DNA from: a virus
Virus genome (UHGV): UHGV-0104313
Length of the DNA stretch: 64,000 nucleotides
Strand: one strand, 5' to 3'
Each line of letters begins with the position of its first letter. Positions within the stretch are counted from its first letter, which is position 1. The notes beneath the pieces were generated by a model, which saw nothing but the letters and a program-made list of their open reading frames with translations, was not told where the DNA came from and did no database searches. Of this stretch, positions 1-42,580 are shown piece after piece. A program made the translations under genes and the position numbers.

Positions 1-19
1 AAACCAACGTTTTTATGCC
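1..19. other. DNA-invertase crossover site (hix/gix/cix-like), truncated by window edge
   Basis: aaaccAAcgtttt core resembles the AAACC-NN-GGTTT centre of Hin/Gin/Cin sites; the same element recurs at every cassette junction (approx. 481-506, 920-945, 1392-1417). Confidence 0.5.
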
Positions 20-489
20 GCCCTTACGATGTAATTAAATGCGATATTTCGTGGACGGGTTTCACTCCCGCCAGTATTACCGATACTCCCTCGTGAATGA
101 AGTGTCGGTGATGGGATCAGACTCCCTCCTGTATTTGTGGCATCAAGTCCCCGTCCTTGTGTGTATGTTTTTTTGAAAATTGTCGCCAGCTCCCATTCAT
201 CTTTTGTGTCGTAACCATCATTGGCTACAACAATATGTCGGTGCTTTTCCAGCATTCCTGTCTGAATGCTCAATAAAGCACGTCCCGCATCCACCCCGCG
301 CCCATCATCCCAGCCGCGAATAAATTCTCCCCGTAAATCCGGTAATTTATTGGTGGGATAAGCCTTTGCCAGATTTGGGTACTTTTCAGAAGAAAATGCT
401 GCACCATTGCATTTCAGCCACCCCGTTGGAGGTGTGGCTGATGGCCACGGAACGGGCACGCCAACGGGCAGTGCAGAGCCTTCCCCCAA
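13..489 (-). CDS. tail-fibre C-terminal cassette 1 (phage tail-collar-like domain), part of invertible region
   Basis: 158-aa ORF; N-terminal 60 aa (GEGSALPVGVPVPWP...LPDLRGEFIRGWDDGRG) and C-terminal RPRNIAFNYIVRAA are shared with two neighbouring ORFs, middle is variable; tail-collar-like motif; first codon is TTG inside the crossover site. Confidence 0.75.
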   Translation of the reverse strand: MGEGSALPVGVPVPWPSATPPTGWLKCNGAAFSSEKYPNLAKAYPTNKLPDLRGEFIRGWDDGRGVDAGRALLSIQTGMLEKHRHIVVANDGYDTKDEWELATIFKKTYTQGRGLDATNTGGSLIPSPTLHSRGSIGNTGGSETRPRNIAFNYIVRAA

Positions 490-506
490 ACCAACGTTTT
501 CATGCC
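481..506. other. DNA-invertase crossover site (hix/gix/cix-like)
   Basis: cccccaaaccAAcgttttcatgcc; imperfect dyad around central AA; overlaps stop of cassette 2 and first codon of cassette 1. Confidence 0.55.
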
Positions 507-928
507 GCCCTTACGATATAATTAAACGCAATGTTACGAGGACGAATGGTTACATAATTAACCCCATCACCTCGTGAAGGCCCTGCAAATGAAAAACGGG
601 AAAATCCTGGTTGGTTAGAAACAATTTGGTCATAGTTATTGATTGAATGACCAGACCCAATGTCGAAATTACCTCCGTAATGAGAAAAACTTGTACCATC
701 CTGCCCTGAAAGCAGGGTACGTCCCGCATCAATCCCGCGCCCATCATCCCAGCCACGGATAAATTCACCGCGTAAATCCGGTAATTTATTGGTGGGGTAG
801 GCTTTTGCCAGTTTGGGATACATTTCAGAAGAAAATGCTGCACCATTGCATTTCAGCCAGCCCGTTGGTGGTGTTTCTAAGGGCCACGGAACGGGCACGC
901 CAACGGGCAATGCTGAGCCTTCCCCCAA
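500..928 (-). CDS. tail-fibre C-terminal cassette 2 (tail-collar-like), invertible region
   Basis: 142-aa ORF with same conserved N- and C-termini as cassettes 1 and 3, divergent central region. Confidence 0.75.
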   Translation of the reverse strand: MGEGSALPVGVPVPWPLETPPTGWLKCNGAAFSSEMYPKLAKAYPTNKLPDLRGEFIRGWDDGRGIDAGRTLLSGQDGTSFSHYGGNFDIGSGHSINNYDQIVSNQPGFSRFSFAGPSRGDGVNYVTIRPRNIAFNYIVRAA

Positions 929-945
929 ACCAACGTTTTTATGCC
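920..945. other. DNA-invertase crossover site (hix/gix/cix-like)
   Basis: same 26-bp element as at 481-506. Confidence 0.55.
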
Positions 946-1370
946 GCCCTTACGATATAATTAAAGGCAATATTACGAGGACGGTTTTCATTAGCTGTTG
1001 GCACGACACGAGAGGCGTCGAATCCAAGGTCATCGGTTTTGTCTATAGTAGTTGTGTTATTCGGCATTCTCGCTGATCGTGTTCCTGCATCGTAAAAAGC
1101 CCCTCTGATTGCATCAAAAGACATACCGATCCCGCCATCTGCGAATCCCTCAATATTTCTTATTGCATCCCCCTGTGAAGATAATAATTGTCGCCCGGCA
1201 TCCACACCACGTCCGTCATCCCAGCCACGAATAAATTCACCGCGTAAATCAGGCAATTTATTAGTAGGGTAAGCCTTTGCCAGATTTGGGTGCTTTTCAG
1301 AAGAAAATGCTGCTCCGTTACATTTCAGCCACCCCGTTGGCGGTGTTTCTAAGGGCCACGGAACGGGCAC
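939..1370 (-). CDS. tail-fibre C-terminal cassette 3 (tail-collar-like), invertible region
   Basis: 143-aa ORF, conserved ends shared with cassettes 1-2. Confidence 0.75.
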   Translation of the reverse strand: MPVPWPLETPPTGWLKCNGAAFSSEKHPNLAKAYPTNKLPDLRGEFIRGWDDGRGVDAGRQLLSSQGDAIRNIEGFADGGIGMSFDAIRGAFYDAGTRSARMPNNTTTIDKTDDLGFDASRVVPTANENRPRNIAFNYIVRAA

Positions 1371-1391
1371 GCCAACGGGCAGCGCCGAGCC

Positions 1392-1417
1392 TTCCCCTAA
1401 ACCAACGTTTTAGTCTT
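1392..1417. other. DNA-invertase crossover site (hix/gix/cix-like), invertase-proximal
   Basis: tcccctaaaccAAcgttttagtctt; same core; lies between cassette 3 and the invertase gene. Confidence 0.55.
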
Positions 1418-1462
1418 AATCCCTACCTATACCAACGATGTATTTTTAACTAAACAAAGAGG

Positions 1463-2044
1463 TTGTTTTTCATGCAAATTGGCTACATTCGTGTGTCAAC
1501 AAATGACCAAAACACAGATTTACAAAGAAATGCACTGAACTGCGCAGGATGTGAACTGATTTTTGAAGATAAAATAAGCGGAACAAAGTCAGCCAGACCA
1601 GGCTTGAAAAAGCTGCTCAGAACGTTATCAGAAGGAGATACGCTGGTTGTCTGGAAGCTGGATAGGCTTGGCAGAAGTATGAAACACCTTATCACGCTTA
1701 TAGAGGAGTTGCGGGAAAAAGGTGTTAATTTCCGTAGTCTGACAGACAGTATTGACACATCAACACCCATGGGGCGTTTCTTTTTTCACGTCATGGGGGC
1801 TTTAGCAGAAATGGAACGTGAATTAATTGTTGAGAGAACACTGGCCGGACTGGCAGCTGCACGCGAACAGGGACGCATTGGCGGACGTCGCCCGAAGTTG
1901 ACAAAAGAACAACATGAGCAAATAGCGAGGTTGATCGAAAATGGCTACAGCAGGAAACAGTTGGCAATTATTTACGATATCGGTGTATCGACGATTTATC
2001 GTTATCATCCTGTAGAGAAGCGCCAAACTCAATCTGAGCTGTAA
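1463..2044 (+). CDS. cin: serine DNA invertase (Cin/Gin/Hin/Pin family)
   Basis: 193 aa; N-terminal catalytic region MQIGYIRVSTNDQNTDLQRNAL with the active-site Ser, C-terminal HTH; sits beside the cassette array as cin does beside the P1 C segment. Confidence 0.9.
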   Translation: MFFMQIGYIRVSTNDQNTDLQRNALNCAGCELIFEDKISGTKSARPGLKKLLRTLSEGDTLVVWKLDRLGRSMKHLITLIEELREKGVNFRSLTDSIDTSTPMGRFFFHVMGALAEMERELIVERTLAGLAAAREQGRIGGRRPKLTKEQHEQIARLIENGYSRKQLAIIYDIGVSTIYRYHPVEKRQTQSEL

Positions 2045-9459: not shown

Positions 9460-9757
9460 AATCGCAGCGCCATTAGGCGGAGATGCCATTATCGAATTTG
9501 ATGATAATGAAGAAGTTTCCGGGCGTTTAAGCATTATCTCCGGTGACATTACCGAGGACATGATCGCTGAAGCCATAGCTGGGGCAAATCCCAATAGCTA
9601 TATGGGATTCGTTAACACCCTTGATGCTCCCGCAAGTGATGTTCTCCGAACGCTGCATCTTTACGCTGGCTGGTTTGTTGATTGGCCAGCAGTAGATGGT
9701 GGCGATGAGGACGACGACGATGATTTTGGTGATCATGTAGACCAGATCGTATATTGA
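9449..9757 (+). CDS. small acidic protein, last gene of darA-type operon
   Basis: 102 aa with poly-Asp/Glu C-terminus; overlaps ddrB stop by 11 nt. Confidence 0.35.
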   Translation: MQIKIAAPLGGDAIIEFDDNEEVSGRLSIISGDITEDMIAEAIAGANPNSYMGFVNTLDAPASDVLRTLHLYAGWFVDWPAVDGGDEDDDDDFGDHVDQIVY

Positions 9758-9786
9758 AGAAATCCCGCCAATCGGCGGGATTTTTA
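9758..9786. terminator. rho-independent terminator hairpin between convergent operons
   Basis: aaatcccgcc-aatc-ggcgggattt followed by TT; between + strand darA operon and - strand ssb operon. Confidence 0.55.
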
Positions 9787-9788
9787 CC

Positions 9789-10883
9789 TCACGAGAAGCT
9801 TTTTTCTGATGTCAGCCAACAGTGCTCGTGCAAATCTCTTGGTGGTTTTTCGACAAATGCCTCTTCAGCCACATCCTGCCAGGGGATTTGTTTAGCCCAT
9901 TCAGCTATAGCGTTATGGTTTGCCGAGAATAACGGTATTGTATAGGCCTTCAGCCAGTCTAATGTGCTGGAGTTGTGTTTTTGAGCGTGATGTTTCGCAT
10001 GGTGTTTGGCGATCACGATCGTAGGCACTACCCATTTACTACCGTCAGTCATTGTGAAGTGCATATTACGGGGAACAGATGACTTTTCCATCAACTCCCG
10101 AATCCCGGGAAATTTCCCCAAGATCAATCGGCGATATTCATCGCTATTGCGCCCACCAAACTCTTTGGCTTTGAATTCAAGATATGCTTCAGAAACGAGA
10201 GGTGAATCCTCTGTGTTTAGAGTTATCGCCGTGAAAAAACCAGCAGGATTGTTTTTACTATGGGCCAACCGGTGATGCGAATCATAAAAGTACCCTTTCT
10301 CGCGTTCCGATGGTTTCGACAGCAACAGCAGGCGCGAGTCATAATTGGTTAAATTGCCAGTTATCACTGCATGAGCGCGATCGCTGATTTCCGCCGAGTT
10401 AATAACGATGAAAAGATCGTGCGGTCCAGTAAAACCAGCCAGAGACTCTTCGTTATTCAGACAATAGGTTATATAGACGCATCCCCATGTTTCACTGATA
10501 TGCACCAACCCTTTGTCAGGGTGTATTCTGAAATAATTGCCAAGAAAAGGGTGTTTTTGGGTAACTCGCTCCCAATAACGGAACATATAGTCAATTATTG
10601 TTTTTCGACTATCGTTAATCGCAGGAGAAACAACCACTGTACGGGAACACGAATACAGTATTGTTTGCAGGATGCTAATCACTGCCACAATAGAGGTTTC
10701 CCCAATACCATGTGGTGTGGTGGCAGTGACTTTGGCTCCGGTGTTCTTTATCGCGTTAATAATTTTTGCTTGATGAGGTGTTAACTCAATATCAAGCAAC
10801 TCTTTTGCTGCCAGTTCCCAATTGTCTTTATACCGTTCTATCAGTGCTAACCAGGCAGATTCATTCTGTATACGATTAATCAC
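9789..10883 (-). CDS. terminase-large-subunit (PacB)-like paralogue with degenerate ATPase motifs
   Basis: 364 aa; alignable by eye to the PacB ORF at 29908-31392 (e.g. ITGNLTNYDSRLLLLSKPSEREKGYFYDSHHRLA vs [33 protein letters not shown]); Walker A GHGTGKS replaced by PHGIGET, Walker B IIDEASG by VINSAEIS; no nuclease domain. Confidence 0.6.
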   Translation of the reverse strand: MINRIQNESAWLALIERYKDNWELAAKELLDIELTPHQAKIINAIKNTGAKVTATTPHGIGETSIVAVISILQTILYSCSRTVVVSPAINDSRKTIIDYMFRYWERVTQKHPFLGNYFRIHPDKGLVHISETWGCVYITYCLNNEESLAGFTGPHDLFIVINSAEISDRAHAVITGNLTNYDSRLLLLSKPSEREKGYFYDSHHRLAHSKNNPAGFFTAITLNTEDSPLVSEAYLEFKAKEFGGRNSDEYRRLILGKFPGIRELMEKSSVPRNMHFTMTDGSKWVVPTIVIAKHHAKHHAQKHNSSTLDWLKAYTIPLFSANHNAIAEWAKQIPWQDVAEEAFVEKPPRDLHEHCWLTSEKSFS

Positions 10884-23656: not shown

Positions 23657-23665
23657 TAATCATTT

Positions 23666-23688
23666 AAAGCCCATATGATATGGGCTTA
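23666..23688. terminator. perfect palindromic hairpin at left border of AT-rich insert
   Basis: aaagcccatat-g-atatgggcttaaa; 10-bp perfect inverted repeat, no strong U-tract. Confidence 0.35.
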
Positions 23689-23708
23689 AACAACAGGATC
23701 GATATACA

Positions 23709-24749
23709 GTGTTAGTTAAATATATAGGCGAGAGTTATATGGATAAACCTTGGCCGGGCATGCACATTAGAACATCTTGTCTGGAGGATGGTTTCTTTAG
23801 AGCAACGCAACCAAAGTATCTTAATGATCCGTCGAGTGAGTCGCGACTTCTTCCATTTTTTAATAAATTTTCACCAGCCGATTACGCATGGGCTAGAAAT
23901 GAATTTAAGAAAATGCAACGAGATCCATCTTATGTCCCATCTATACAAGAGTTAGAGTATTATTTAAAACCTTGCGGGAAACGATACGGAGAGGATTTTC
24001 CACACTTGTTAATCAATGAAGGTTTTACCTCAATGGATTCATATGATGAATCTAAACTCCAAGAAATAGTAACGTACCTTAACGATTATTTAGTAGAAGC
24101 CGTAAGCTGTCATCTTGGTGTGTTCTCTCTATCAAAAAGTGATTGCAATCTACACATGTGGACTCATTATGCATCGATAGGAAAGGGGTTTGCTGTAGTT
24201 TTCGATGAAACACACGATTTTTTCAAAATATATCGGCCGTGTGATGTTAGTTATAATCCAGAAGATAGAGCATCTGTAACCTATTATAAAGGCGCTGTGC
24301 GATTTAATGGCTATCCTGCGCCATCGAGGAATATAGATATAAAGAATAAAGATAATACATTGCATGGGATCTTAAATCGAGATTCAGTTCGCGAGCTTTT
24401 TATTAATAGGCTTCTTTATACAAAAGGTGAAGAGTGGCTTCCTGAAAATGAAAGTAGAATTATTTTTCCATTGGCTGATTGCGAGAGAAAAATAGGAAGC
24501 ATTGTCTCTCCATCGATTGATGATTGCCTATTAAATGAGTATCCTGATGTTTTTCATGACTATCATGAAATTAACTTAAAGAAAATTCCTTTTTCTGCAT
24601 TCAAGCAAATTACCTTAGGGTATAACATGACTGAAAAAGATAAAAATATAATTTTAGATAAAGTTAGTTCGAATAAAGAATTGTCTCACCTCAACGTATT
24701 ACAATCAAAACTTGATATATATGGAAAGGTTGTGGTTAATCCCATGTAA
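23709..24749 (+). CDS. hypothetical protein with DUF2971-like motifs; candidate cargo/defence gene at the res-mod locus
   Basis: 346 aa from GTG (alternative ATG at 23739 with better RBS); visibly AT-rich coding sequence; motifs KYIG, PKYLNDPSSE, MWTHYASIGKGFAVVFD; flanked by lxc-like and mat-like genes. Confidence 0.6.
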   Translation: MLVKYIGESYMDKPWPGMHIRTSCLEDGFFRATQPKYLNDPSSESRLLPFFNKFSPADYAWARNEFKKMQRDPSYVPSIQELEYYLKPCGKRYGEDFPHLLINEGFTSMDSYDESKLQEIVTYLNDYLVEAVSCHLGVFSLSKSDCNLHMWTHYASIGKGFAVVFDETHDFFKIYRPCDVSYNPEDRASVTYYKGAVRFNGYPAPSRNIDIKNKDNTLHGILNRDSVRELFINRLLYTKGEEWLPENESRIIFPLADCERKIGSIVSPSIDDCLLNEYPDVFHDYHEINLKKIPFSAFKQITLGYNMTEKDKNIILDKVSSNKELSHLNVLQSKLDIYGKVVVNPM

Positions 24750-24781
24750 TAATACGCTTATGTCTAAACTTCATGATAAAT

Positions 24782-24803
24782 ACCTTCCTTAACTTAGGAA
24801 GGT
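24782..24803. terminator. bidirectional terminator-like hairpin between convergent genes
   Basis: accttcct-taactt-aggaaggt, AT-rich flank on the minus-strand side. Confidence 0.45.
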
Positions 24804-24846
24804 GAGTTGTGGGTTTACGCAGAAAGTAACAAATAACCTTCGTAGG

Positions 24847-25488
24847 TTATAGAATATTATTCTTTCCGGTGAGTATTCCTTGAGGAACTCTAGCGCATCC
24901 CATAATTTGAGTTTTCTTGATGATGTTTATATATGACGCTATCAGCGATGAGTCATCACGACTATCCACTTCACAAGCCATTGCCCTGATGTAGTCGGCG
25001 CTGGCAACGTTGTTGTATTCCGTCGCAAAGCAACATAGTAACGTCAGAACATGCTCTGTCGTTATTTCGCTCCAGTTGATGTTGAAAAATTCATCGCCTT
25101 TTTTATCGTGTTCGGAATCGAAGATGCTTTGGTGGAGGATGTATTTGCCGGATTCCTTGCGCGGTAACTTGATTGCTTTCTGGCGTTCCAGCTCCTTATA
25201 AATCTGCATTGCCTCAATTAGTACCGGCCTGCCGTTCATGAAGGGATCGCGCAACCTTACACGCTGGCCAACTCGACCAGTAATAAAGCTGTTTTCCTCT
25301 TCCACCAGCACGATAAAACCCTTTTCCTCTTTTTCTCGCAATTCGCGCAGCAGCTGGAGTTCCATATCGCGGCGGCGTTCAGGGTAGCTGGTCCGCTCAG
25401 CCATTATCAGCTCGTTGTTGATCCATGCAGCAGTCATTGACGCCGGTTTGCCGACGCTCATCGAAACAACGCATATTTTCTTATCCAT
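24847..25488 (-). CDS. Mat-like protein
   Basis: ORF downstream of ref on minus strand; likely start at MDKKICVV (GTAGGGG RBS); synteny with P1 cre-cra-ref-mat. Confidence 0.35.
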   Translation of the reverse strand: MDKKICVVSMSVGKPASMTAAWINNELIMAERTSYPERRRDMELQLLRELREKEEKGFIVLVEEENSFITGRVGQRVRLRDPFMNGRPVLIEAMQIYKELERQKAIKLPRKESGKYILHQSIFDSEHDKKGDEFFNINWSEITTEHVLTLLCCFATEYNNVASADYIRAMACEVDSRDDSSLIASYINIIKKTQIMGCARVPQGILTGKNNIL

Positions 25489-26846: not shown

Positions 26847-27878
26847 CTAATCACCATCTTCCAGCAGGCGCACCATTGCCCCCGTTTCACTATCCAGATT
26901 ACGGATATAGTTCATGACAATATTTACGTTGGTCCAGCCACCAGCTTGCATGATCTCCGGTATTGAAACTCCGGCGCGGGCCATATCTCGCGCGGCTCCG
27001 ACACGGGCACTGTGTCCAGACCAGGCCAGGTACCTCTGACCAGAGTCATCCTTAGCCCCGTAAATCAATCGGTGAGTTGCTTCAAAAATCCCTTCCAGGG
27101 CGCGAGTTGATAGCTGGCTGGTGGATGATGGCGAGGCAACACCATTTTTTCTGACCCGGCAAAACAAGTAGTTATTCGGATCATCAGCCACACCAGAGAC
27201 AGAAATCCATCTCTCGACCAGTTTAGTTACCCCCAGGCTAAGTGCCTTCTCTACACCTGCGGTGCTAACCAGCGTTTTCGTTCTGCCAATATGGATTAAC
27301 ATTCTCCCACCGTCAGTACGTGAGATATCTTTAACCCTGATCCTGGCAATTTCGGCTATACGTAACAGGGTGTTATAAGCAATCCCCAGAAATGCCAGAT
27401 TACGTATATCCTGGCAGCGATCGCTATTTTCCATGAGTGAACGAACCTGGTCGAAATCAGTGCGTTCGAACGCTAGTGCCTGTTTTGCACGTTCACCGGC
27501 ATCAACGTTTTCTTTTCGGATCCGCCGCATGACCAGTGAAACAGCGTTGCTGTCACTTGGTCGTGGCAGCCCGGACCGACGATGAAGCATGTTTAGCTGG
27601 CCCAAATGTTGCTGGATAGTTTTTACTGCCAGACCGCGCGCCTGAAGATATAGAAGATAATCGCGAACATCTTCAGGTTCTGCGGGAAACCATTTCCGGT
27701 TATTCAACTTGCACCATGCCGCCCACGACCGGCAAACGGACAGAAGCATTTTCCAGGTATGCTCAGAAAACGCCTGGCGATCCCTGAACATGTCCATCAG
27801 GTTCTTGCGAACCTCATCACTCGTTGCATCGACCGGTAATGCAGGCAAATTTTGGTGTACGGTCAGTAAATTGGACAT
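26847..27878 (-). CDS. cre: Cre tyrosine recombinase
   Basis: 343 aa; MSNLLTVHQNLPALPVDATSDEVRKNLMDMFRDRQAFSEHTWKMLLSVCRSWAAWCKLNN... matches Cre as I know it along its length with few substitutions; loxP lies 419 bp upstream. Confidence 0.97.
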   Translation of the reverse strand: MSNLLTVHQNLPALPVDATSDEVRKNLMDMFRDRQAFSEHTWKMLLSVCRSWAAWCKLNNRKWFPAEPEDVRDYLLYLQARGLAVKTIQQHLGQLNMLHRRSGLPRPSDSNAVSLVMRRIRKENVDAGERAKQALAFERTDFDQVRSLMENSDRCQDIRNLAFLGIAYNTLLRIAEIARIRVKDISRTDGGRMLIHIGRTKTLVSTAGVEKALSLGVTKLVERWISVSGVADDPNNYLFCRVRKNGVASPSSTSQLSTRALEGIFEATHRLIYGAKDDSGQRYLAWSGHSARVGAARDMARAGVSIPEIMQAGGWTNVNIVMNYIRNLDSETGAMVRLLEDGD

Positions 27879-37224: not shown

Positions 37225-38153
37225 ACTTCACCCTCGCTTGTATCGCCAGCATCCACCAGCGGCAATAAAGCCCTGGCCATCTTATGAACCAATAGTGCAT
37301 CAATAATGCCAAGCGTATGCCCCGGCTTAATGTTTAATGCCGCCTCAAGGTGACACCTTTCCAGGCCACTTTTCTCGGCTTGTTTATGATGATCTGGTGT
37401 AATAACGTCGCCCAAAACACGGCTAATTCTTTCTCGTAATTGCTGGGTGCCAGCACACTTGATCGCTGTATCGTGGAGACGGTTAACCAGTTCGCGATAA
37501 ACATGCGGCTTAATTCGGATACGTTCACCGGTGACGCCCTTTCCTGGTGCTGGCACCGAACTATCCGGAATATCCGGATAGTTGCCAGCCTCGTAAGCTA
37601 CCCGCAGCCAGTGCATGAATGTTTCAGTGGACACACAACCACAGTCCACATCGATTTTCCCGCGTTGCTGTTCCAGCCATTGCCCAAAATCCAACCTGTA
37701 AGTCTTACTTTCAAGTTCATCACCATTGAACTCGACTTTCTGCGACGCTATGAGAGCTGATTCGTATTGTTCGCGAGTGACAACTGACTGGTATTCATCG
37801 CTATCAAGGTCACCAATTGGAAGCTCAATCTCACAACAAAAATTGCGCCCAAAGAAAGTGTCTTTTTTGTGGTCTGAGCCAAAAGCAAAAGTCGCGCATG
37901 GTGCCATTAAATTGACACTGGGTAGGTAACAATAACTCATTCCATCAGGCCACCCGCCGCACTTAGGCAGTTCCTTCACTAACAAGTCGATAAACTTCAT
38001 TTTTTTATCATCTTTGCAAGCCGCCAAAGCCATTTGGGCAAGTGCCAATACTTCATCTGCCGTATATCCAGCACCGTGACCATACATTTCGATACGGGAA
38101 ATAATCTCTGATATACGCTCTTCAGTGATTCTGGTCATTTCTTTTTGCGCCAT
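37221..38153 (-). CDS. hypothetical protein
   Basis: 310-aa ORF, overlapping stop/start with neighbours. Confidence 0.45.
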   Translation of the reverse strand: MAQKEMTRITEERISEIISRIEMYGHGAGYTADEVLALAQMALAACKDDKKMKFIDLLVKELPKCGGWPDGMSYCYLPSVNLMAPCATFAFGSDHKKDTFFGRNFCCEIELPIGDLDSDEYQSVVTREQYESALIASQKVEFNGDELESKTYRLDFGQWLEQQRGKIDVDCGCVSTETFMHWLRVAYEAGNYPDIPDSSVPAPGKGVTGERIRIKPHVYRELVNRLHDTAIKCAGTQQLRERISRVLGDVITPDHHKQAEKSGLERCHLEAALNIKPGHTLGIIDALLVHKMARALLPLVDAGDTSEGEV

Positions 38154-38509
38154 TTCTTTTCACATTCCTTAGTCCATTTTTCAATGTTCATTTTGGCAAT
38201 ATCAGTCATTCCATCACCTAAGAAATACTTTCTCCGGTACGTCTTGCACTTAAACCACACTACAACAGCCACCAGCCAGAAAATAAAAGGCCATACAGCA
38301 ATACCAACTCCAGCCGCGATAAAGCCCAATAGCCATAAATGAAGCTCTCCAACTTCTGTTTGCGGCAATATTCTTAAAGAATTAAGCAGCAGACTGAAGG
38401 AATAGTCGTATGCATTGGCGGTATAAGACATGCAATCCATATAATTAAAGTCATAGCCTGCGGCTGCCGCCCATAATGGGCGGTCAAGAAAATGTTTTAG
38501 TGTCATCAT
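38135..38509 (-). CDS. hypothetical membrane protein
   Basis: 124 aa, two hydrophobic helices, Lys-rich C-terminus. Confidence 0.4.
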   Translation of the reverse strand: MMTLKHFLDRPLWAAAAGYDFNYMDCMSYTANAYDYSFSLLLNSLRILPQTEVGELHLWLLGFIAAGVGIAVWPFIFWLVAVVVWFKCKTYRRKYFLGDGMTDIAKMNIEKWTKECEKKWRKKK

Positions 38510-38515
38510 ATAAAT

Positions 38516-38905
38516 TTAAGGTTCAGACCAGTTATCTTCAATAGCAATGCTTAATCTTTGTAGCCATTCTGCTAATTTCAGCATTGCTTCTCTTTCGCTT
38601 AAACCACGAGGAAAATCATCAAGCGAAATTGTTGGCTTGAAGCCCCCGTAATTATCTATTTCAACAGTCAGATTTTGCTCCAGCACGGTATTCCTTACGC
38701 GGCTATTGTGCCGAAGCAAATATACTGAACGTGATTTATTGGTTTTATGGTCAAACTGATATTCGGTAAGTATCATCTGGCTTTTGCCATGACTATTACC
38801 TCTCCACATACTTACCTCACTTAATAAAACAACTCCATGCGTAGTTGATGATTTTTTCCCACGTAATATAAATCTGCACTCCGGCAGTAAAACCAAAGCC
38901 AACAA
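38516..38905 (-). CDS. hypothetical protein
   Basis: 129-aa ORF. Confidence 0.35.
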   Translation of the reverse strand: MLALVLLPECRFILRGKKSSTTHGVVLLSEVSMWRGNSHGKSQMILTEYQFDHKTNKSRSVYLLRHNSRVRNTVLEQNLTVEIDNYGGFKPTISLDDFPRGLSEREAMLKLAEWLQRLSIAIEDNWSEP

Positions 38906-38987
38906 TTGCTGAAAAAATCAAAACATTTACTTTTGACATTATAAATTTTCTCTCGGTGTCGTAGGTGATAGCACCATAATTGATAAT

Positions 38988-39239
38988 TTAGTGAGTTAGC
39001 AGTTCCATTTTTTGGATGATTTCCGCATGAGCATCATCGTTATCAACACTTAACTCGTTTAATGCCTCTCGCACTACATCAACTTCTTCTGGTTGGAAGA
39101 AGTCATCTCGGTAGTCACCAAATAGAACCGAAACAAGCCTGCCACCAGCAACATCAAGATTGGCGCTAACAGGTGGCTCTTTACCATCCTCAAATTCGAC
39201 TACAAAAGTTATTTTTCCCATCGTTACCACCAGCGACAA
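38988..39239 (-). CDS. hypothetical small acidic protein
   Basis: 83-aa ORF. Confidence 0.35.
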   Translation of the reverse strand: MSLVVTMGKITFVVEFEDGKEPPVSANLDVAGGRLVSVLFGDYRDDFFQPEEVDVVREALNELSVDNDDAHAEIIQKMELLTH

Positions 39240-39303
39240 ATTGAATACAAACCCAGTGCTGCCGCCATCACAATTCCTACCGTGGTGAATGCTTCAGGCC
39301 AGC

Positions 39304-40209
39304 TCATTGATTCACCTCCTGCGGCGGTTCTGGTAGCGGCATCCAGTGTGACGGTTTCCACGACGCACCAGGAATTATCCACCCATCATTAGCGTCAGGA
39401 TGCCCCGGGATGTAAGTAGCCCATTTCATTCGCCAGTCACCTTTCCTGTCAAACTCCACGGCAACAAGAACGGCTGTTTTGGTATTCGGCATTCGCTCAC
39501 TACAGCTTATCCAACCATCCGGAGTTACCGGAACTTGCGGAATGGCTGTCTGCTCTCGAACGTCATTAGGCGCTATAGGTTCTGCTGCCAACTGACTGGC
39601 ATATTTGTTAATGGTAACGATAAGCTCTTGCTCAGCCTCATCCAGACAATCACCGATACCTCGCCTGTCACCGTCAAAATCATCGAAATCGGCACGAATC
39701 TTGGCAACCTTCAGGATTGCGGACAACACCTCACTAGGAATTACCGGATAGTTGGTTGACGTTTCCGCGATTTCCCGAAAATTATTGGTTGACGAATTCT
39801 TGTTTTCCCGAAAGTTTCCGGACTGAAGCATGGCGGCGCGGCAGGCGTTCCAGCCAGCTGTTCGCCCAAGCGCGTAAACTTCAGATGGCTCAAGATAATC
39901 AATGTCATGCCCGTCCTCATCGTCGTTCTCAGGTAATGCAGCAGGTACTACCGGTACTGGCGGAGCGGTGTAGACCTCAATAATCCCATTATCAATAGGC
40001 CATTCTCCATCCTTGAGATAGTCACTTGTGCCGTCAACTTGCTGTTCAGCAATGTGGAATGCACCAACTGGCTCTGCCTCAAGCGAGGCCAGTGCAATTC
40101 GTGCCAGTTCTTCCGCTTCTTCTGCTGGCAGTACAACGTTGCTACCAGGTCCGTATGTTTCGCGCCACTGCCTGATTGTCAGCAGTCGCTCTTTGGTAAT
40201 AGTGGTCAT
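39304..40209 (-). CDS. hypothetical protein with DUF551-like C-terminus
   Basis: 301 aa; C-terminal WISCSERMP...ANDGW...HWMPLPEPP pattern recalled from phage DUF551 proteins. Confidence 0.45.
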   Translation of the reverse strand: MTTITKERLLTIRQWRETYGPGSNVVLPAEEAEELARIALASLEAEPVGAFHIAEQQVDGTSDYLKDGEWPIDNGIIEVYTAPPVPVVPAALPENDDEDGHDIDYLEPSEVYALGRTAGWNACRAAMLQSGNFRENKNSSTNNFREIAETSTNYPVIPSEVLSAILKVAKIRADFDDFDGDRRGIGDCLDEAEQELIVTINKYASQLAAEPIAPNDVREQTAIPQVPVTPDGWISCSERMPNTKTAVLVAVEFDRKGDWRMKWATYIPGHPDANDGWIIPGASWKPSHWMPLPEPPQEVNQ

Positions 40210-40219
40210 GTGTTAGTCC

Positions 40220-40525
40220 TTATCCTGCTGTACTTTCAACTGATGAGGGGAATAAAATCTTTTCATCAAATCCGGCATTCATATCATGAACAGCAACACA
40301 CCAATCCATTGACGAACGATTATCAAGAGCCTCCATGATTTCATCCATGCGGCGCAGGTCATACAGGTAAATGCTTTTATCGCCAATGGTGTAAAAACCA
40401 ATTTTTTTCGGTGATGGGCAGCGATCAAGAACGTCCTGTAATTCGCTCAACCATGCTTGTTCTTTTTTTGTCAAAGTTGCCATATCACTCTCCTTTGATG
40501 CCAATGCCAGCGGCGCGGGAATCAT
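40220..40525 (-). CDS. hypothetical protein
   Basis: 101-aa ORF. Confidence 0.35.
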   Translation of the reverse strand: MIPAPLALASKESDMATLTKKEQAWLSELQDVLDRCPSPKKIGFYTIGDKSIYLYDLRRMDEIMEALDNRSSMDWCVAVHDMNAGFDEKILFPSSVESTAG

Positions 40526-41042
40526 CCCATCGCTTTACTTCTTCACGAATTACGTCAATGCATTCTTTCGAATCCATTAGGTAATCTTCATCAAAAAGAC
40601 GTTCCTGTTCGTTTTCTATCGCAACAATGATTGCTTCAACTAACTTTTGTGCCTGAGAACCACTTTCTAACTCTGCTATGCGCTTACTCCCATCAGAGAT
40701 AACACCTTCGTAATACTCACGCTGCTCGTTGAGTTTTGATTTTGCTGCTTCCAGCTCAACGCGCAACTTCCCTACCGTTAGTGCAATATCCTCGTTCTCC
40801 TGGTCGCGGGATTTGATGTATTGCTGGTTCCTTTCCCGTTCATCCAGTAGTGCCAAAGCAATCTTTGGATTAAAGGCAGCAATAAATTCAGCGTTGTTTT
40901 TCAGAACGTGTTGCGCAATGGCCTGACTACTTAGTCGGACCTCATAACCACGTGCGCCACGGTGTGGTTTATATGAGTCCCAGTCTCCCCACGTTGCCTT
41001 CTCTGCCGCCTCACGCAGTGCCTGATAGTCAATCTTGTTCAT
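40485..41042 (-). CDS. Ead/Ea22-like phage protein (paralogue A)
   Basis: 185 aa; N-terminus MNKIDYQALREAAEKATWGDW. Confidence 0.45.
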   Translation of the reverse strand: MNKIDYQALREAAEKATWGDWDSYKPHRGARGYEVRLSSQAIAQHVLKNNAEFIAAFNPKIALALLDERERNQQYIKSRDQENEDIALTVGKLRVELEAAKSKLNEQREYYEGVISDGSKRIAELESGSQAQKLVEAIIVAIENEQERLFDEDYLMDSKECIDVIREEVKRWDDSRAAGIGIKGE

Positions 41043-41043
41043 G

Positions 41044-41376
41044 TCACATCACCCTGAATCCGTTGCATTTACGTAAGAAATCGCAGATATAGCCCTTCAT
41101 TTTTTCATGCCAATCTCGATCATTCCCATTGCACCAACCATCAGGTGGAGTCCAGTTTTCTATCAGAGCAGCCATTTTCTTTGCTTTCGCCGGAGTAGCT
41201 GTTGCGGTATCGCAGTAATGACGAGTGTCAACCAACGCATCCATACCATCGATATCAAGTACGCAAAACCATGTGTGATTCGGAATTCCTACAGGTGGTA
41301 TTTGTTGCCCACGTCGACGTTTATCAATAAGATATACACTCACTGCTTGCCTCCTTTGCGAATCTGTTCCGCCCAT
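41044..41376 (-). CDS. hypothetical protein
   Basis: 110-aa ORF. Confidence 0.35.
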   Translation of the reverse strand: MGGTDSQRRQAVSVYLIDKRRRGQQIPPVGIPNHTWFCVLDIDGMDALVDTRHYCDTATATPAKAKKMAALIENWTPPDGWCNGNDRDWHEKMKGYICDFLRKCNGFRVM

Positions 41377-42065
41377 TCTTCAAGGGATTTCTCCGCATAT
41401 TCACCGGACAGGCCATCAATCGGATGCGGTTCATTAGCCAACTCTTCTTTCGCTGACAAAATCATGCGTGTAACGTCGAAAACTTCACGCAAAGATTTAT
41501 TGATAAATCCGTGATTGAACGCAGCAGCAAGACGGCTGGCGGTATAGTTAATCCCCTCGTTGCGTGCTTCCGCACGAATTTCAGCCAGAAAAGCATCGGT
41601 GGCTGAAATATTTCCTGTTGCCTTCATGGCCCCCAAAATAACCAGAACGCCATCTCGCCCAACCTCCTCAGCGATAACCTCGGTGTTGTCGCCAACAACA
41701 TCGCAGAATGCCTGAACTGCCTTACGAGCCAGCTCATTCTCCGCCGCCAGCGCCGCGCACTTGGCCTCAAGAGCGGCAACCACTTCCTGATGGTCTTTGT
41801 ACTTAACGTATGAGCCGGAGATGTCATCACCTTCGGTGTTTAGCCATGCGTCATTGCAATTCACTGCGTAGGTTCTGATGCTCATGTTGATGCTCTCCCG
41901 CCCCTGACAGACGCTAGGCCAGTCAATAAAGTATCCGCAATGCCTACCCTCAGACGTGCGCGCAGGATAAATGCCGTTATGACCCGGCAAAATATATGCT
42001 ACCCATTCATCTTGCGTTGCCTGTTTCGCCGCCTCGCGCAGTTCTTTATAGTTAATTTCGCTCAC
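41340..42065 (-). CDS. Ead/Ea22-like phage protein (paralogue B)
   Basis: 241 aa; N-terminus MSEINYKELREAAKQATQDEW; C-terminus EQIRKGGKQ. Confidence 0.45.
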   Translation of the reverse strand: MSEINYKELREAAKQATQDEWVAYILPGHNGIYPARTSEGRHCGYFIDWPSVCQGRESINMSIRTYAVNCNDAWLNTEGDDISGSYVKYKDHQEVVAALEAKCAALAAENELARKAVQAFCDVVGDNTEVIAEEVGRDGVLVILGAMKATGNISATDAFLAEIRAEARNEGINYTASRLAAAFNHGFINKSLREVFDVTRMILSAKEELANEPHPIDGLSGEYAEKSLEEWAEQIRKGGKQ

Positions 42066-42301
42066 TGGTTGCCTCCTTTACGGATCTGCGCTGCGATGCG
42101 CGAAAAAAAAGACTCCCGCGTATGACTGTTAAGAGCTGGCGCGAACGCTGCGTTAAGAACAGCAGCATCACAGCCGTCATCAATATAGAGCGCAATTTTT
42201 TTCTCCAGGCGCGCTTTGGCTTCCTGCAACTGCATACCCCGGCACGCACGCGGGATATAATCAGCAATTTGAGCGATAGCCTTTTCGTTCTGTTTAAACA
42301 T
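42062..42301 (-). CDS. hypothetical protein sharing C-terminal tail with upstream gene
   Basis: 79 aa ending AAQIRKGGNQ, same tail as the 241-aa ORF. Confidence 0.35.
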   Translation of the reverse strand: MFKQNEKAIAQIADYIPRACRGMQLQEAKARLEKKIALYIDDGCDAAVLNAAFAPALNSHTRESFFSRIAAQIRKGGNQ

Positions 42302-42497
42302 GCTTCACCTCGATAGGCTTGATGGTGTCTAACAGCAGTCGGCGGCGCGTATTTTCTGCAAAATGGCGGCGTCCAGTTTCTTTGTGGTAAAACTCGTTTT
42401 TGCCGACGACCCACATCCGCTCTGTTTGGTGCAGTTTTTTTACCTGCGGACCGTCTTTGGTGATCACGGTGCCGGTATGGGTTTTTACGATTGTCAT
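42294..42497 (-). CDS. hypothetical small protein
   Basis: 67-aa ORF. Confidence 0.3.
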   Translation of the reverse strand: MTIVKTHTGTVITKDGPQVKKLHQTERMWVVGKNEFYHKETGRRHFAENTRRRLLLDTIKPIEVKHV

Positions 42498-42580
42498 GCC
42501 ACTACCTATTCGAACAGATGAACGAGACAGGCCGATGCTCGTCCACCTGAAAAACTGACGATTTGATGCATACTCACGGT

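Follow-up and report, generated by a model that had tools for sequence, protein, structure and literature searches.

Positions 1-2044 of the analysed window (64,000 nucleotides of the virus genome UHGV-0104313, from a 6.5x metagenome contig) very probably belong to a P1-like phage-plasmid of the p15B type and form the end of its Min multiple DNA-inversion region that lies nearest the invertase gene. Three silent tip cassettes and the start of a fourth lie on the minus strand of this stretch (1-2044), each bounded by a 26-bp crossover site. The initial annotation had proposed a Min-like multi-cassette invertible fibre region here, a reading upheld by the match of the sites to the mix sites of p15B and by an invertase identical to that of pMCR_SCKP-LL83. 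The system is a common one that has already been described (Sandmeier, Iida, Arber 1990-92), and it was found in about 146 PLSDB plasmids.

ORF calling placed three minus-strand open reading frames at 13-489, 500-928 and 939-1370. Their alignment agrees with the shared ends and differing middle first reported for them: about 75 N-terminal positions are nearly all identical, the last 14 residues are identical (RPRNIAFNYIVRAA), and the middles are unrelated. No stop interrupts the frames as far back as the dinucleotides of crossover (493-494, 932-933 and 1404-1405), and the TTG or GTG "starts" of the called ORFs are a product of ORF calling. Cassette T1 (13..492, minus strand, about 159 aa) contains HRH and has an N-terminal Collar domain, a variable middle and the C-terminus RPRNIAFNYIVRAA, and its stop codon at 13-15 falls within the next mix site. 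T2 (500..931, minus strand, 143 aa) is of the same type as the cassette joined to the constant part of the fibre gene in the relative L038, and T3 (939..1403, minus strand, 154 aa), of the GDAIRNI class, adjoins the invertase gene. Each cassette starts at a 26-bp mix site and has its stop in the following one (GGCATAAAAACG TT GGTTTGGGGGAA on the coding strand). A direct repeat family of 265 nt (three copies, spacing 439 and 472 nt) was detected in 1-2100, and no inverted repeat was found in this interval. When 1-2500 was scanned for promoters and terminators, no signal exceeded those of shuffled sequences, and no promoter-like site was seen before the cassettes.

All three cassettes matched the Pfam Collar family (PF07484, 3e-15 to 6e-14) and PHROG 523, "tail collar fiber protein" (1e-65 to 1e-76). 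They also align at both ends to the T4 gp37 tip (2XGF, E=3e-17), in the N-terminal collar segment and in the C-terminal ...NIAFNYIVR.A, and the single HxH motif of T1 aligns to an HxH motif of gp37. Each cassette (143-159 aa) encodes a short receptor-binding tip, in which the about 75 N-terminal and 14 C-terminal conserved residues correspond, as judged from the alignment, to the collar in a fibre tip like that of T4 gp37, and the variable middle would make up the distal part. The cassettes differ from gp37 in their length (143-169 aa versus the 242 aa crystallised), and about half of the cassette types have no HxH motif and resemble instead a "short tail fiber" chain, 9cuy.

The crossover sites have a half of 12 bp on either side of a central AA, the two halves being imperfectly inverted, and they were compared with the p15B mix sites published in PMC3241671. 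On the plus strand, the site at 481-506 (TTCCCCCAAACC AA CGTTTTCATGCC) has one mismatch to the published list, the site at 920-945 (TTCCCCCAAACC AA CGTTTTTATGCC) is identical to the mix consensus form, and the min-proximal site at 1392-1417 (TTCCCCTAAACC AA CGTTTTAGTCTT) has one mismatch to p15B mixMI''L'. The same imperfect dyad of 26 bp had been noticed at each junction, and it can now be equated with p15B mix, with no or one mismatch. A fourth, truncated plus-strand site at 1-19 retains the last 5 nt of its left half, the right half CGTTTTTATGCC and, between them, the central AA (6-7). A fourth minus-strand cassette, located beyond the contig end, would start from it. When the 26-mer was searched with up to 3 mismatches, 2 matches were found versus 0.00 expected, and the 15-nt core had 3 near-exact matches in 64 kb, all within 1-1417. 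The only further matches to the 15-mer core, at 27264, 34667 and 55545, with 3 mismatches each, were at chance level and were dismissed.

The gene min (1472..2044, plus strand) is transcribed away from the array and encodes a serine DNA invertase of the Din family (190 aa). A serine invertase gene had been announced after the cassettes with a start at 1463; the gene stands, but the start does not, since the most likely one is ATG 1472 rather than TTG 1463, giving 190 aa as in annotated relatives. Its product contains the catalytic Ser9 motif YIRVSTNDQ and the Pfam domains Resolvase (PF00239, 2e-51) and HTH_7 (PF02796, 3e-15), and it matches structures of Mu Gin (4m6f, E=4e-92). In protein sequence it is 100% identical to "pin" of pMCR_SCKP-LL83 and to the invertase of the relative L001, and it shares 81% identity with Pin, 74% with Cin and 72% with Gin. 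The pMCR_SCKP-LL83 segment was reported to be 99% identical to p15B min (PMC5786510). The exact protein, with the UniRef name "DNA-invertase ... RepID=Q05517_ECOLX", occurs on at least 1000 contigs. A putative recombinational enhancer at 1490..1561 (plus strand) is identical at 58 of 72 nt to the annotated enhancer in P1 cin, and is presumed from this similarity to be Fis-dependent; its conservation is weak evidence, because this stretch also codes for the best-conserved part of the protein.

All four sites of the window are in the same, direct orientation, and the array leaves by the left edge, as had been stated before; this edge proves to be the end of the metagenome contig and not merely that of the window. 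The window covers the first 64 kb of this 94-kb contig (ENA ERZ1304119 NODE_205_length_94164, identified through an exact match of the DarA protein), and the first base of both lies within a mix site. Neither the inverted partner site nor the constant part of the fibre can therefore be seen in this element; both were absent from the window and from the 16 kb of the source contig read, and we infer them for this molecule from its relatives. The source sequence had no counterpart in the phage, plasmid or E. coli RefSeq collections, and a 44-mer specific to this isomer (window 467-510) had no match in IMG/VR, GTDB genomes or JGI metagenomes.

Ten complete arrays were compared (L037, L001, L002, L038, L039, L040, L046, L047, L048, and L053). 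Each contains between 7 and 17 cassettes, which converge without exception on a single tfa chaperone gene; at least 12 sequence types occur among the cassettes, and the site at the junction with the constant part was inverted in all ten. The constant fibre gene terminates in TTCTTGATTACC TT GGTTTGGGGGAA in all of the complete relatives examined; this end site is the reverse complement of the published mixQ''R', lies in inverted orientation and is joined in frame to one cassette, so that the junction reads ...SVLDYL/GLGEGS... The cassette fused to the constant part was T2 in L038, T1 in L040, and T3 in both L048 and L053. Since T1, T2 and T3 are each fused in some relative, they are very probably alternative 3' ends of one fibre gene and not independent genes, in line with the role first suggested for them.

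Near-clonal relatives, which differ from the window by 0-3 bases over a backbone of 10.6 kb, carry T1 and T2 with variable parts 100% identical, in other positions and orientations. L053, with one mismatch to the window over the 10.6-kb backbone, contains more than two sites, which lie in both orientations as in every complete relative, and has the order Sc/T3> T2> T7> T6> T1> T5> T9> <T8/min. Its T3 is identical to that of the window at 467 of 467 nt, in opposite orientation and fused to the constant part. The variable part of T1 is 100% identical in L053, L033, L055, and L056, all near-clonal; relative to min, T1 lies in the opposite orientation in L053 and is min-proximal in L033. Outward from min, the order is T1, T2, T3 in L033 versus T3, T2, T1 in the window. 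Identical cassettes that differ in order and orientation among near-clonal plasmids are indirect evidence, drawn from sequence comparison, that suggests shuffling. Six of the eight contigs with the same DarA protein end inside the array.

It is very unlikely that the window holds a locked relic, that is, a Min region by descent that has lost inversion, for example through loss of the partner site or of the constant part. The direct orientation of all four visible sites would fit such a relic, pJIE250-3 has been described with a reduced region, and locked variants exist, such as L055, in which a three-cassette block interrupts min at codon 115. On the other hand, min is intact here and identical to a widespread allele, the crossover sites are intact, complete arrays are present in near-clonal contigs, and the 94-kb contig fits a complete P1-like genome.

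The possibility that shuffling is mainly due to RecA-dependent homologous recombination between the conserved stretches of about 265 nt, and not to Min acting at the 26-bp sites, is even less probable. The repeats are long and 78-91% identical, and cassette number varies from 7 to 17, duplicates included. In T1 and T2, the conserved 5' parts differ by 5-8 nt from those of clonal relatives, whereas the variable parts are identical, a pattern that resembles patchy exchange; these 5' differences may also reflect an assembly chimera. However, whole cassettes stay intact from site to stop in the order changes among near-clonal relatives, the arrays are strictly convergent, as site-specific inversion predicts, and the two reciprocal junctions of the L055 rearrangement both fall on AACGT, the core of crossover. 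Homologous exchange probably has a part in the gain, loss and patching of cassettes, but not in switching.

Finally, that the cassettes are independent small tail-protein genes, each separately expressed, as their calling by PGAP as CDS ("phage tail protein") and an in-frame TTG or GTG near the 5' end of each frame might imply, is hardly credible and was rejected, given that none of the three begins with ATG or follows a promoter-like site, that no Shine-Dalgarno motif was seen upstream by eye, that their frames are open back to the crossover point, that relatives have the same sequences joined in frame to the constant part, and that the cassettes are without the shaft needed for attachment to the virion.

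The Min mechanism was already worked out around 1990, and the present locus leaves its understanding unchanged. As relatives show, the constant fibre gene (R-S operon) would lie to the left of the window and end in a mix site of opposite orientation, and all cassettes would face a central unit in which T9 with tfa stands opposite T8. By analogy with Gin, Hin and Cin, Min, together with host Fis bound at the enhancer in the 5' part of min, would carry out strand exchange at the central AA/TT of two sites, provided that these are inverted and lie on one supercoiled molecule. Every inversion would then span the centre, set another cassette in frame after ...SVLDYL/GLGEGS and reorder the remaining ones. 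Sites in direct repeat, like the four of the window, would not recombine with each other, so that a row of cassettes is expected to be stable. With n sites, 2(n-1)! arrangements and n fibre variants could be formed, resulting in host-range variation.

The closest known system is the Min region of p15B, reportedly described by Sandmeier, Iida, Meyer, Hiestand-Nauer and Arber in 1990 and by Sandmeier et al. in 1991 and 1992, with the sequence X62121. The likeness extends from the sites (0-1 mismatch) and the invertase (identical to that of the 99% p15B-like segment) to the P1-like backbone, in which lydA-darA adjoins min, and to a cin 5' relic downstream of min, common to both according to notes in the P1 record. 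The number of sites differs: p15B was described with six and complete present-day relatives hold 7-17, whereas at least four are found in this contig.

Among two-site systems, the Pin/P segment of the cryptic prophage e14 and the invertible fibre segments of E. coli prophages such as EC958 Phi2 have a gene orientation relative to the segment as in min and Collar-domain cassettes of the same kind; PinE is the closest characterised invertase (81%), and EC958 Phi2 has nearly the same crossover sites. These prophage segments have two sites, two ends and a tfa per arm, whereas the array considered here has many cassettes and one tfa. T1 was found at about 90% nucleotide identity in about 30 IMG/VR prophage contigs. 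P1 Cin and Mu Gin resemble Min in their recombinase family, 12-2-12 sites and alternative fibre ends, and presumably in an enhancer within the 5' part of the invertase gene, but they have only two sites, and their Sv arms, about 1.6 kb long, each carry U/U'. The P1 gene cin runs towards its segment and overlaps cixL with its 3' end, whereas min points away, and nucleotide identity between min and cin is only 70%. A two-arm segment of the Cin/Gin kind was rejected on the basis of at least four sites, short window cassettes without tfa, and one tfa per 7-17 cassettes in the relatives.

The shufflons of R64 (Rci) and of Bifidobacterium prophages (Rin) likewise use multi-site inversions to select one C-terminal end of an adhesin or receptor-binding protein. 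They depend on tyrosine recombinases and on asymmetric 19-bp sfx or 11-bp rix sites, whereas a serine invertase and 26-bp sites are found here. The region had initially been called "shufflon- or Min-like"; the second term holds, but a shufflon in the strict R64 sense, which requires the tyrosine recombinase Rci and asymmetric sfx, was rejected because the recombinase here belongs to the serine class (resolvase/invertase).

Arrays on the scale of 7-17 cassettes were not described for Min in the literature searched. We tentatively propose, at slightly less than even chances, that the Min arrays of present-day P1-like plasmids form a library that is open, still shuffling actively and far larger than the p15B prototype with its six sites. 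Pointing this way are the size of the arrays, which would allow 2(n-1)! arrangements, the one tfa gene for all cassettes, the sharing of cassettes with two-site prophage systems, the rearrangement seen between plasmids 0-3 bases apart over 10 kb, and occasional self-locking by insertion of a cassette block into min at a quasi-site. The largest arrays, reported with 13-17 cassettes (for example in NZ_CP135665.1), may be assembly artefacts of mixed isomer populations, and assemblies tend to break, and possibly to inflate, in the array region, where automatic annotation also turns silent cassettes, wrongly, into genes of their own ("phage tail protein"). The Min system decides to which bacteria a P1-like phage-plasmid can adsorb, and in clinical Enterobacteriaceae resistance genes including mcr-1 and CTX-M are found on P1-like elements. 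Eight or more switchable tips widen the potential host range of such an element, which is relevant to predicting its spread and to the use of P1-type vectors.

The region 1-2044 is a Min multiple-inversion system within a P1-like phage-plasmid, and its reading as a Min-like multi-cassette invertible fibre region was supported by mix-site matches to plasmid p15B, by the identity of the invertase and by the arrays of related loci. ORF calling gave three minus-strand frames, 13-489, 500-928 and 939-1370, in the silent fibre-tip cassettes T1, T2 and T3 (13-492, 500-931 and 939-1403, respectively). Alignment of their products bore out the initial annotation, which had described common ends and differing middles: the first ~75 aligned residues were nearly all identical, the last 14 (RPRNIAFNYIVRAA) were identical, and the middles were unrelated. 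At the DNA level, a repeat scan of 1-2100 found three direct copies of a 265-nt sequence, at spacings of 439 and 472 nt, and no inverted repeat within this interval. The TTG and GTG "starts" of the cassettes are products of ORF calling, since the frames extend uninterrupted as far back as the crossover dinucleotides, and each stop codon sits within the next mix site (GCG GCA TAA in GGCATAAAAACG).

Mix crossover sites of 12-2-12 form were located at 481-506 (TTCCCCCAAACC AA CGTTTTCATGCC), 920-945 (TTCCCCCAAACC AA CGTTTTTATGCC) and, proximal to the invertase, 1392-1417 (TTCCCCTAAACC AA CGTTTTAGTCTT), with a further copy at 1-19 that the window edge truncates. The site search thus agreed with the earlier description of one 26-bp dyad at each junction and four co-oriented sites. 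With up to 3 mismatches allowed, the 26-mer occurred twice against 0.00 expected, and no further credible copy was found on either strand across the 64 kb outside 1-1417. The window sites differ by 0-1 mismatch from the six mix sites of p15B tabulated in the BAMBI paper (PMC3241671), the site at 1392-1417 having one mismatch to the published mixMI''L' (TTCCCCCAAACC AA CGTTTTAGTCTT).

A serine invertase gene had been placed at 1463-2044; the gene was confirmed by its Resolvase and HTH_7 domains and by its match to Mu Gin crystal structures (E=4e-92), but its start was not, the most likely one being ATG at 1472 rather than TTG at 1463. The 190-aa product of this min gene (1472-2044) is intact, with the Ser9 motif present, and is 81% identical to e14 PinE, 74% to P1 Cin and 72% to Mu Gin. 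The exact sequence, recorded on at least 1000 contigs, bears the UniRef name "DNA-invertase ... RepID=Q05517_ECOLX", and min was found at 95% identity or more in ~146 PLSDB plasmids, as against ~228 for cin. The protein is also 100% identical to that of the gene annotated "pin" on pMCR_SCKP-LL83, whose putative invertible segment showed, according to its authors, 99% identity and 92% coverage to p15B min (PMC5786510).

The Cin enhancer is annotated at cin +19 to +90 in the P1 record, and 58 of 72 nt of this stretch are identical at window 1490-1561, within min. This segment may be the Min enhancer, the identity being weak evidence because the stretch also codes for the catalytic N-terminus. 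A dead 5' cin fragment, closely aligned to P1 cin and its promoter region, lies on the minus strand at 2176-2352 (upstream region to ~2415), ~130 bp downstream of min and in the opposite orientation. Its translation, MLIGYVRI*TNEQNTAMQ*KALES..., has two stops, one at the codon preceding the catalytic Ser (VST to I*T), and it contains a second enhancer-homologous stretch. The P1 record mentions the same cin stretch in p15B, and the fragment looks like a scar from a Min-for-Cin substitution.

Base 1 of the window is the start of a metagenomic contig (ENA ERZ1304119 NODE_205_length_94164_cov_6.49; identical over 16,097 bases, same first base), and therefore the array does run off the left edge, as first proposed, this edge being the contig end. 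For the left-side architecture the evidence is indirect and comes from ten complete arrays in related plasmids and genome contigs. In these arrays, which hold 7-17 cassettes, the constant fibre part (Sc) terminates in TTCTTGATTACC TT GGTTTGGGGGAA, the reverse complement of the published mixQ''R' and thus inverted with respect to the window's sites, and the junction into the cassette is in frame (...SVLDYL/GLGEGSALPVGVP...). The expressed, fused position is occupied by T2 in plasmid locus L038, T1 in L040 and T3 in L048 and L053. Every cassette is directed at a central unit, found in both orientations, that consists of T9 and the sole tail-fibre assembly gene, tfa, and faces T8; this convergent layout is exactly what stays conserved if all rearrangements are inversions between two sites lying on opposite sides of the centre.

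The single tfa always follows T9 (L002 7208-8750; L001 7654-8693; L053 5651-7223); the cassette facing it in L001 is not T8 but a T5-like one that ends in RAD. Only about half of the arrangements place tfa in the same direction as the fibre operon, so that most tips may fold unaided by tfa or use it in trans. Some plasmids (L040, NZ_CP135665.1, 1733-10695; L038; L033) carry 17 cassettes and several identical duplicates, or mirror-image duplicates (T2 T1 ... T1 T2 in L038), which could be real expansions via unequal exchange or assembly artefacts of mixed isomer populations.

In the Gin, Hin and Cin systems, invertase dimers at two inverted sites join a Fis-bound enhancer on the same supercoiled molecule. 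By analogy, Min dimers at two inverted sites would assemble with a Fis-bound enhancer on the same supercoiled plasmid and exchange strands at the central AA/TT. Sites in direct repeat would not recombine, which would leave the tandem row of the window stable. The formula 2(n-1)! gives 240 arrangements for six sites, the number reportedly given in a 1990 paper on p15B, and 10,080 for L053 with its eight sites; as many different fibres are possible as there are cassette types present.

All three window cassettes carry a Pfam Collar domain at the N-terminus (E about 1e-14 to 1e-15) and are similar to PHROG "tail collar fiber protein" families at the C-terminal ends of the latter. Among solved structures, the best match was the receptor-binding tip of gp37, from the long tail fibre of T4 (2XGF, E=3e-17), to which both the N-terminal segment and the extreme C-terminus (NIAFNYIVR.A) align. 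The gp37 tip chain exits the collar, extends to the tip and comes back, leaving both ends in the collar. A similar path would explain the conserved ends and variable middle, the latter being, by this analogy, the distal, receptor-contacting part. Among at least 12 cassette types counted across relatives, T1, T5, T8 and T9 have one HxH motif, as in gp37, and others have a GDAIRNI-type motif and are similar to the "short tail fiber" chain 9cuy. T1 also occurs at ~90% nucleotide identity in ~30 other prophage contigs (among L003-L036, IMG/VR), in ordinary two-site invertible segments of ~1.85 kb adjoining pin-like invertases; P1-like arrays and chromosomal prophages therefore use a common tip pool.

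Several observations point to current shuffling. Contigs encoding an identical DarA protein show 0-3 base differences to the window in 10.6 kb of backbone and have the same cassettes in other places. T3 is identical over 467/467 nt in L053, yet lies there in inverted orientation, joined to the constant part (Sc/T3> T2> T7> T6> T1> T5> T9> <T8/min), and the order outward from min is T1, T2, T3 in L033 versus T3, T2, T1 in the window. A hand-worked path of three inversions, each between sites of opposite orientation, could convert the L053 array into one ending <T1 <T2 <T3/min, as in the window. Six of the eight contigs found via DarA (L054-L059 among the relatives) end within the Min array. The first base of the window's contig lies five bases from a crossover dinucleotide, just before the first variable base (G or A) of the cassette-side half-sites; at 6.5x coverage, this is only suggestive of an assembly-graph branch from one cassette end with different partners in the reads. 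The RefSeq plasmid NZ_CP148411.1 is linearised exactly at a crossover dinucleotide (...CCAAACCAA/CGTTTTTATGCC).

Cassettes are probably also gained, lost and patched through homologous recombination between the 265-nt repeats: T1 and T2 are 5-8 nt off the near-clonal copies in their conserved 5' parts (291-480 and 730-919) and 100% identical to them in their variable parts, a pattern due either to inter-cassette gene conversion or to a chimeric consensus in the 6.5x assembly. However, such recombination leaves the site-respecting moves of whole cassettes unexplained. That the array is a locked relic is possible but unlikely, given an intact min, intact sites and a source contig large enough for a whole genome. 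The idea that the cassettes are expressed independently is contradicted by their lack of ATG starts and, in a promoter scan, of promoter-like sites, by frames open back to the crossover point and by the copies fused to the constant part in relatives.

One relative whose backbone is identical (L055 1030-2940; GCA_031519885.1 and 10 similar places) has a three-cassette block, <T5 <T3 <T1, inside min, both reciprocal junctions being at a shared AACGT. The target corresponds to a quasi-site at window 1803-1828 (TAGCAGAAATGG AA CGTGAATTAATT), mix-like around the core. As min is split at codon 115, this array is probably locked and would be a natural self-inactivation via a quasi-site.

The remainder of the window aligns collinearly to phage P1, with 94-99% identity (P1 32,187 down through 1 and 94,800 to 63,995). 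Three stretches are without P1 counterpart: 9756-10874, a 364-aa ORF with no Pfam hit in place of isaA-IS1-isaB; 23657-24964, a 346-aa DUF2971 protein in place of the EcoPI res-mod genes; and 37597-42614, a 5-kb insert at P1 ~85,182 encoding two Ead/Ea22-like proteins, a DUF551 protein and a DUF7739 protein.

The region belongs with p15B Min and works alike, differing only in cassette content and probably number. Unlike in P1 Cin and Mu Gin, its cassettes are short and numerous, there is a single tfa, and the invertase gene is directed away from the segment, whereas R64-type and Rin shufflons differ from it in recombinase class, the window's enzyme being a serine invertase. The Min system itself is already known, with nothing new there; of modest interest are the size that arrays reach in current plasmids and the signs that rearrangement is ongoing.
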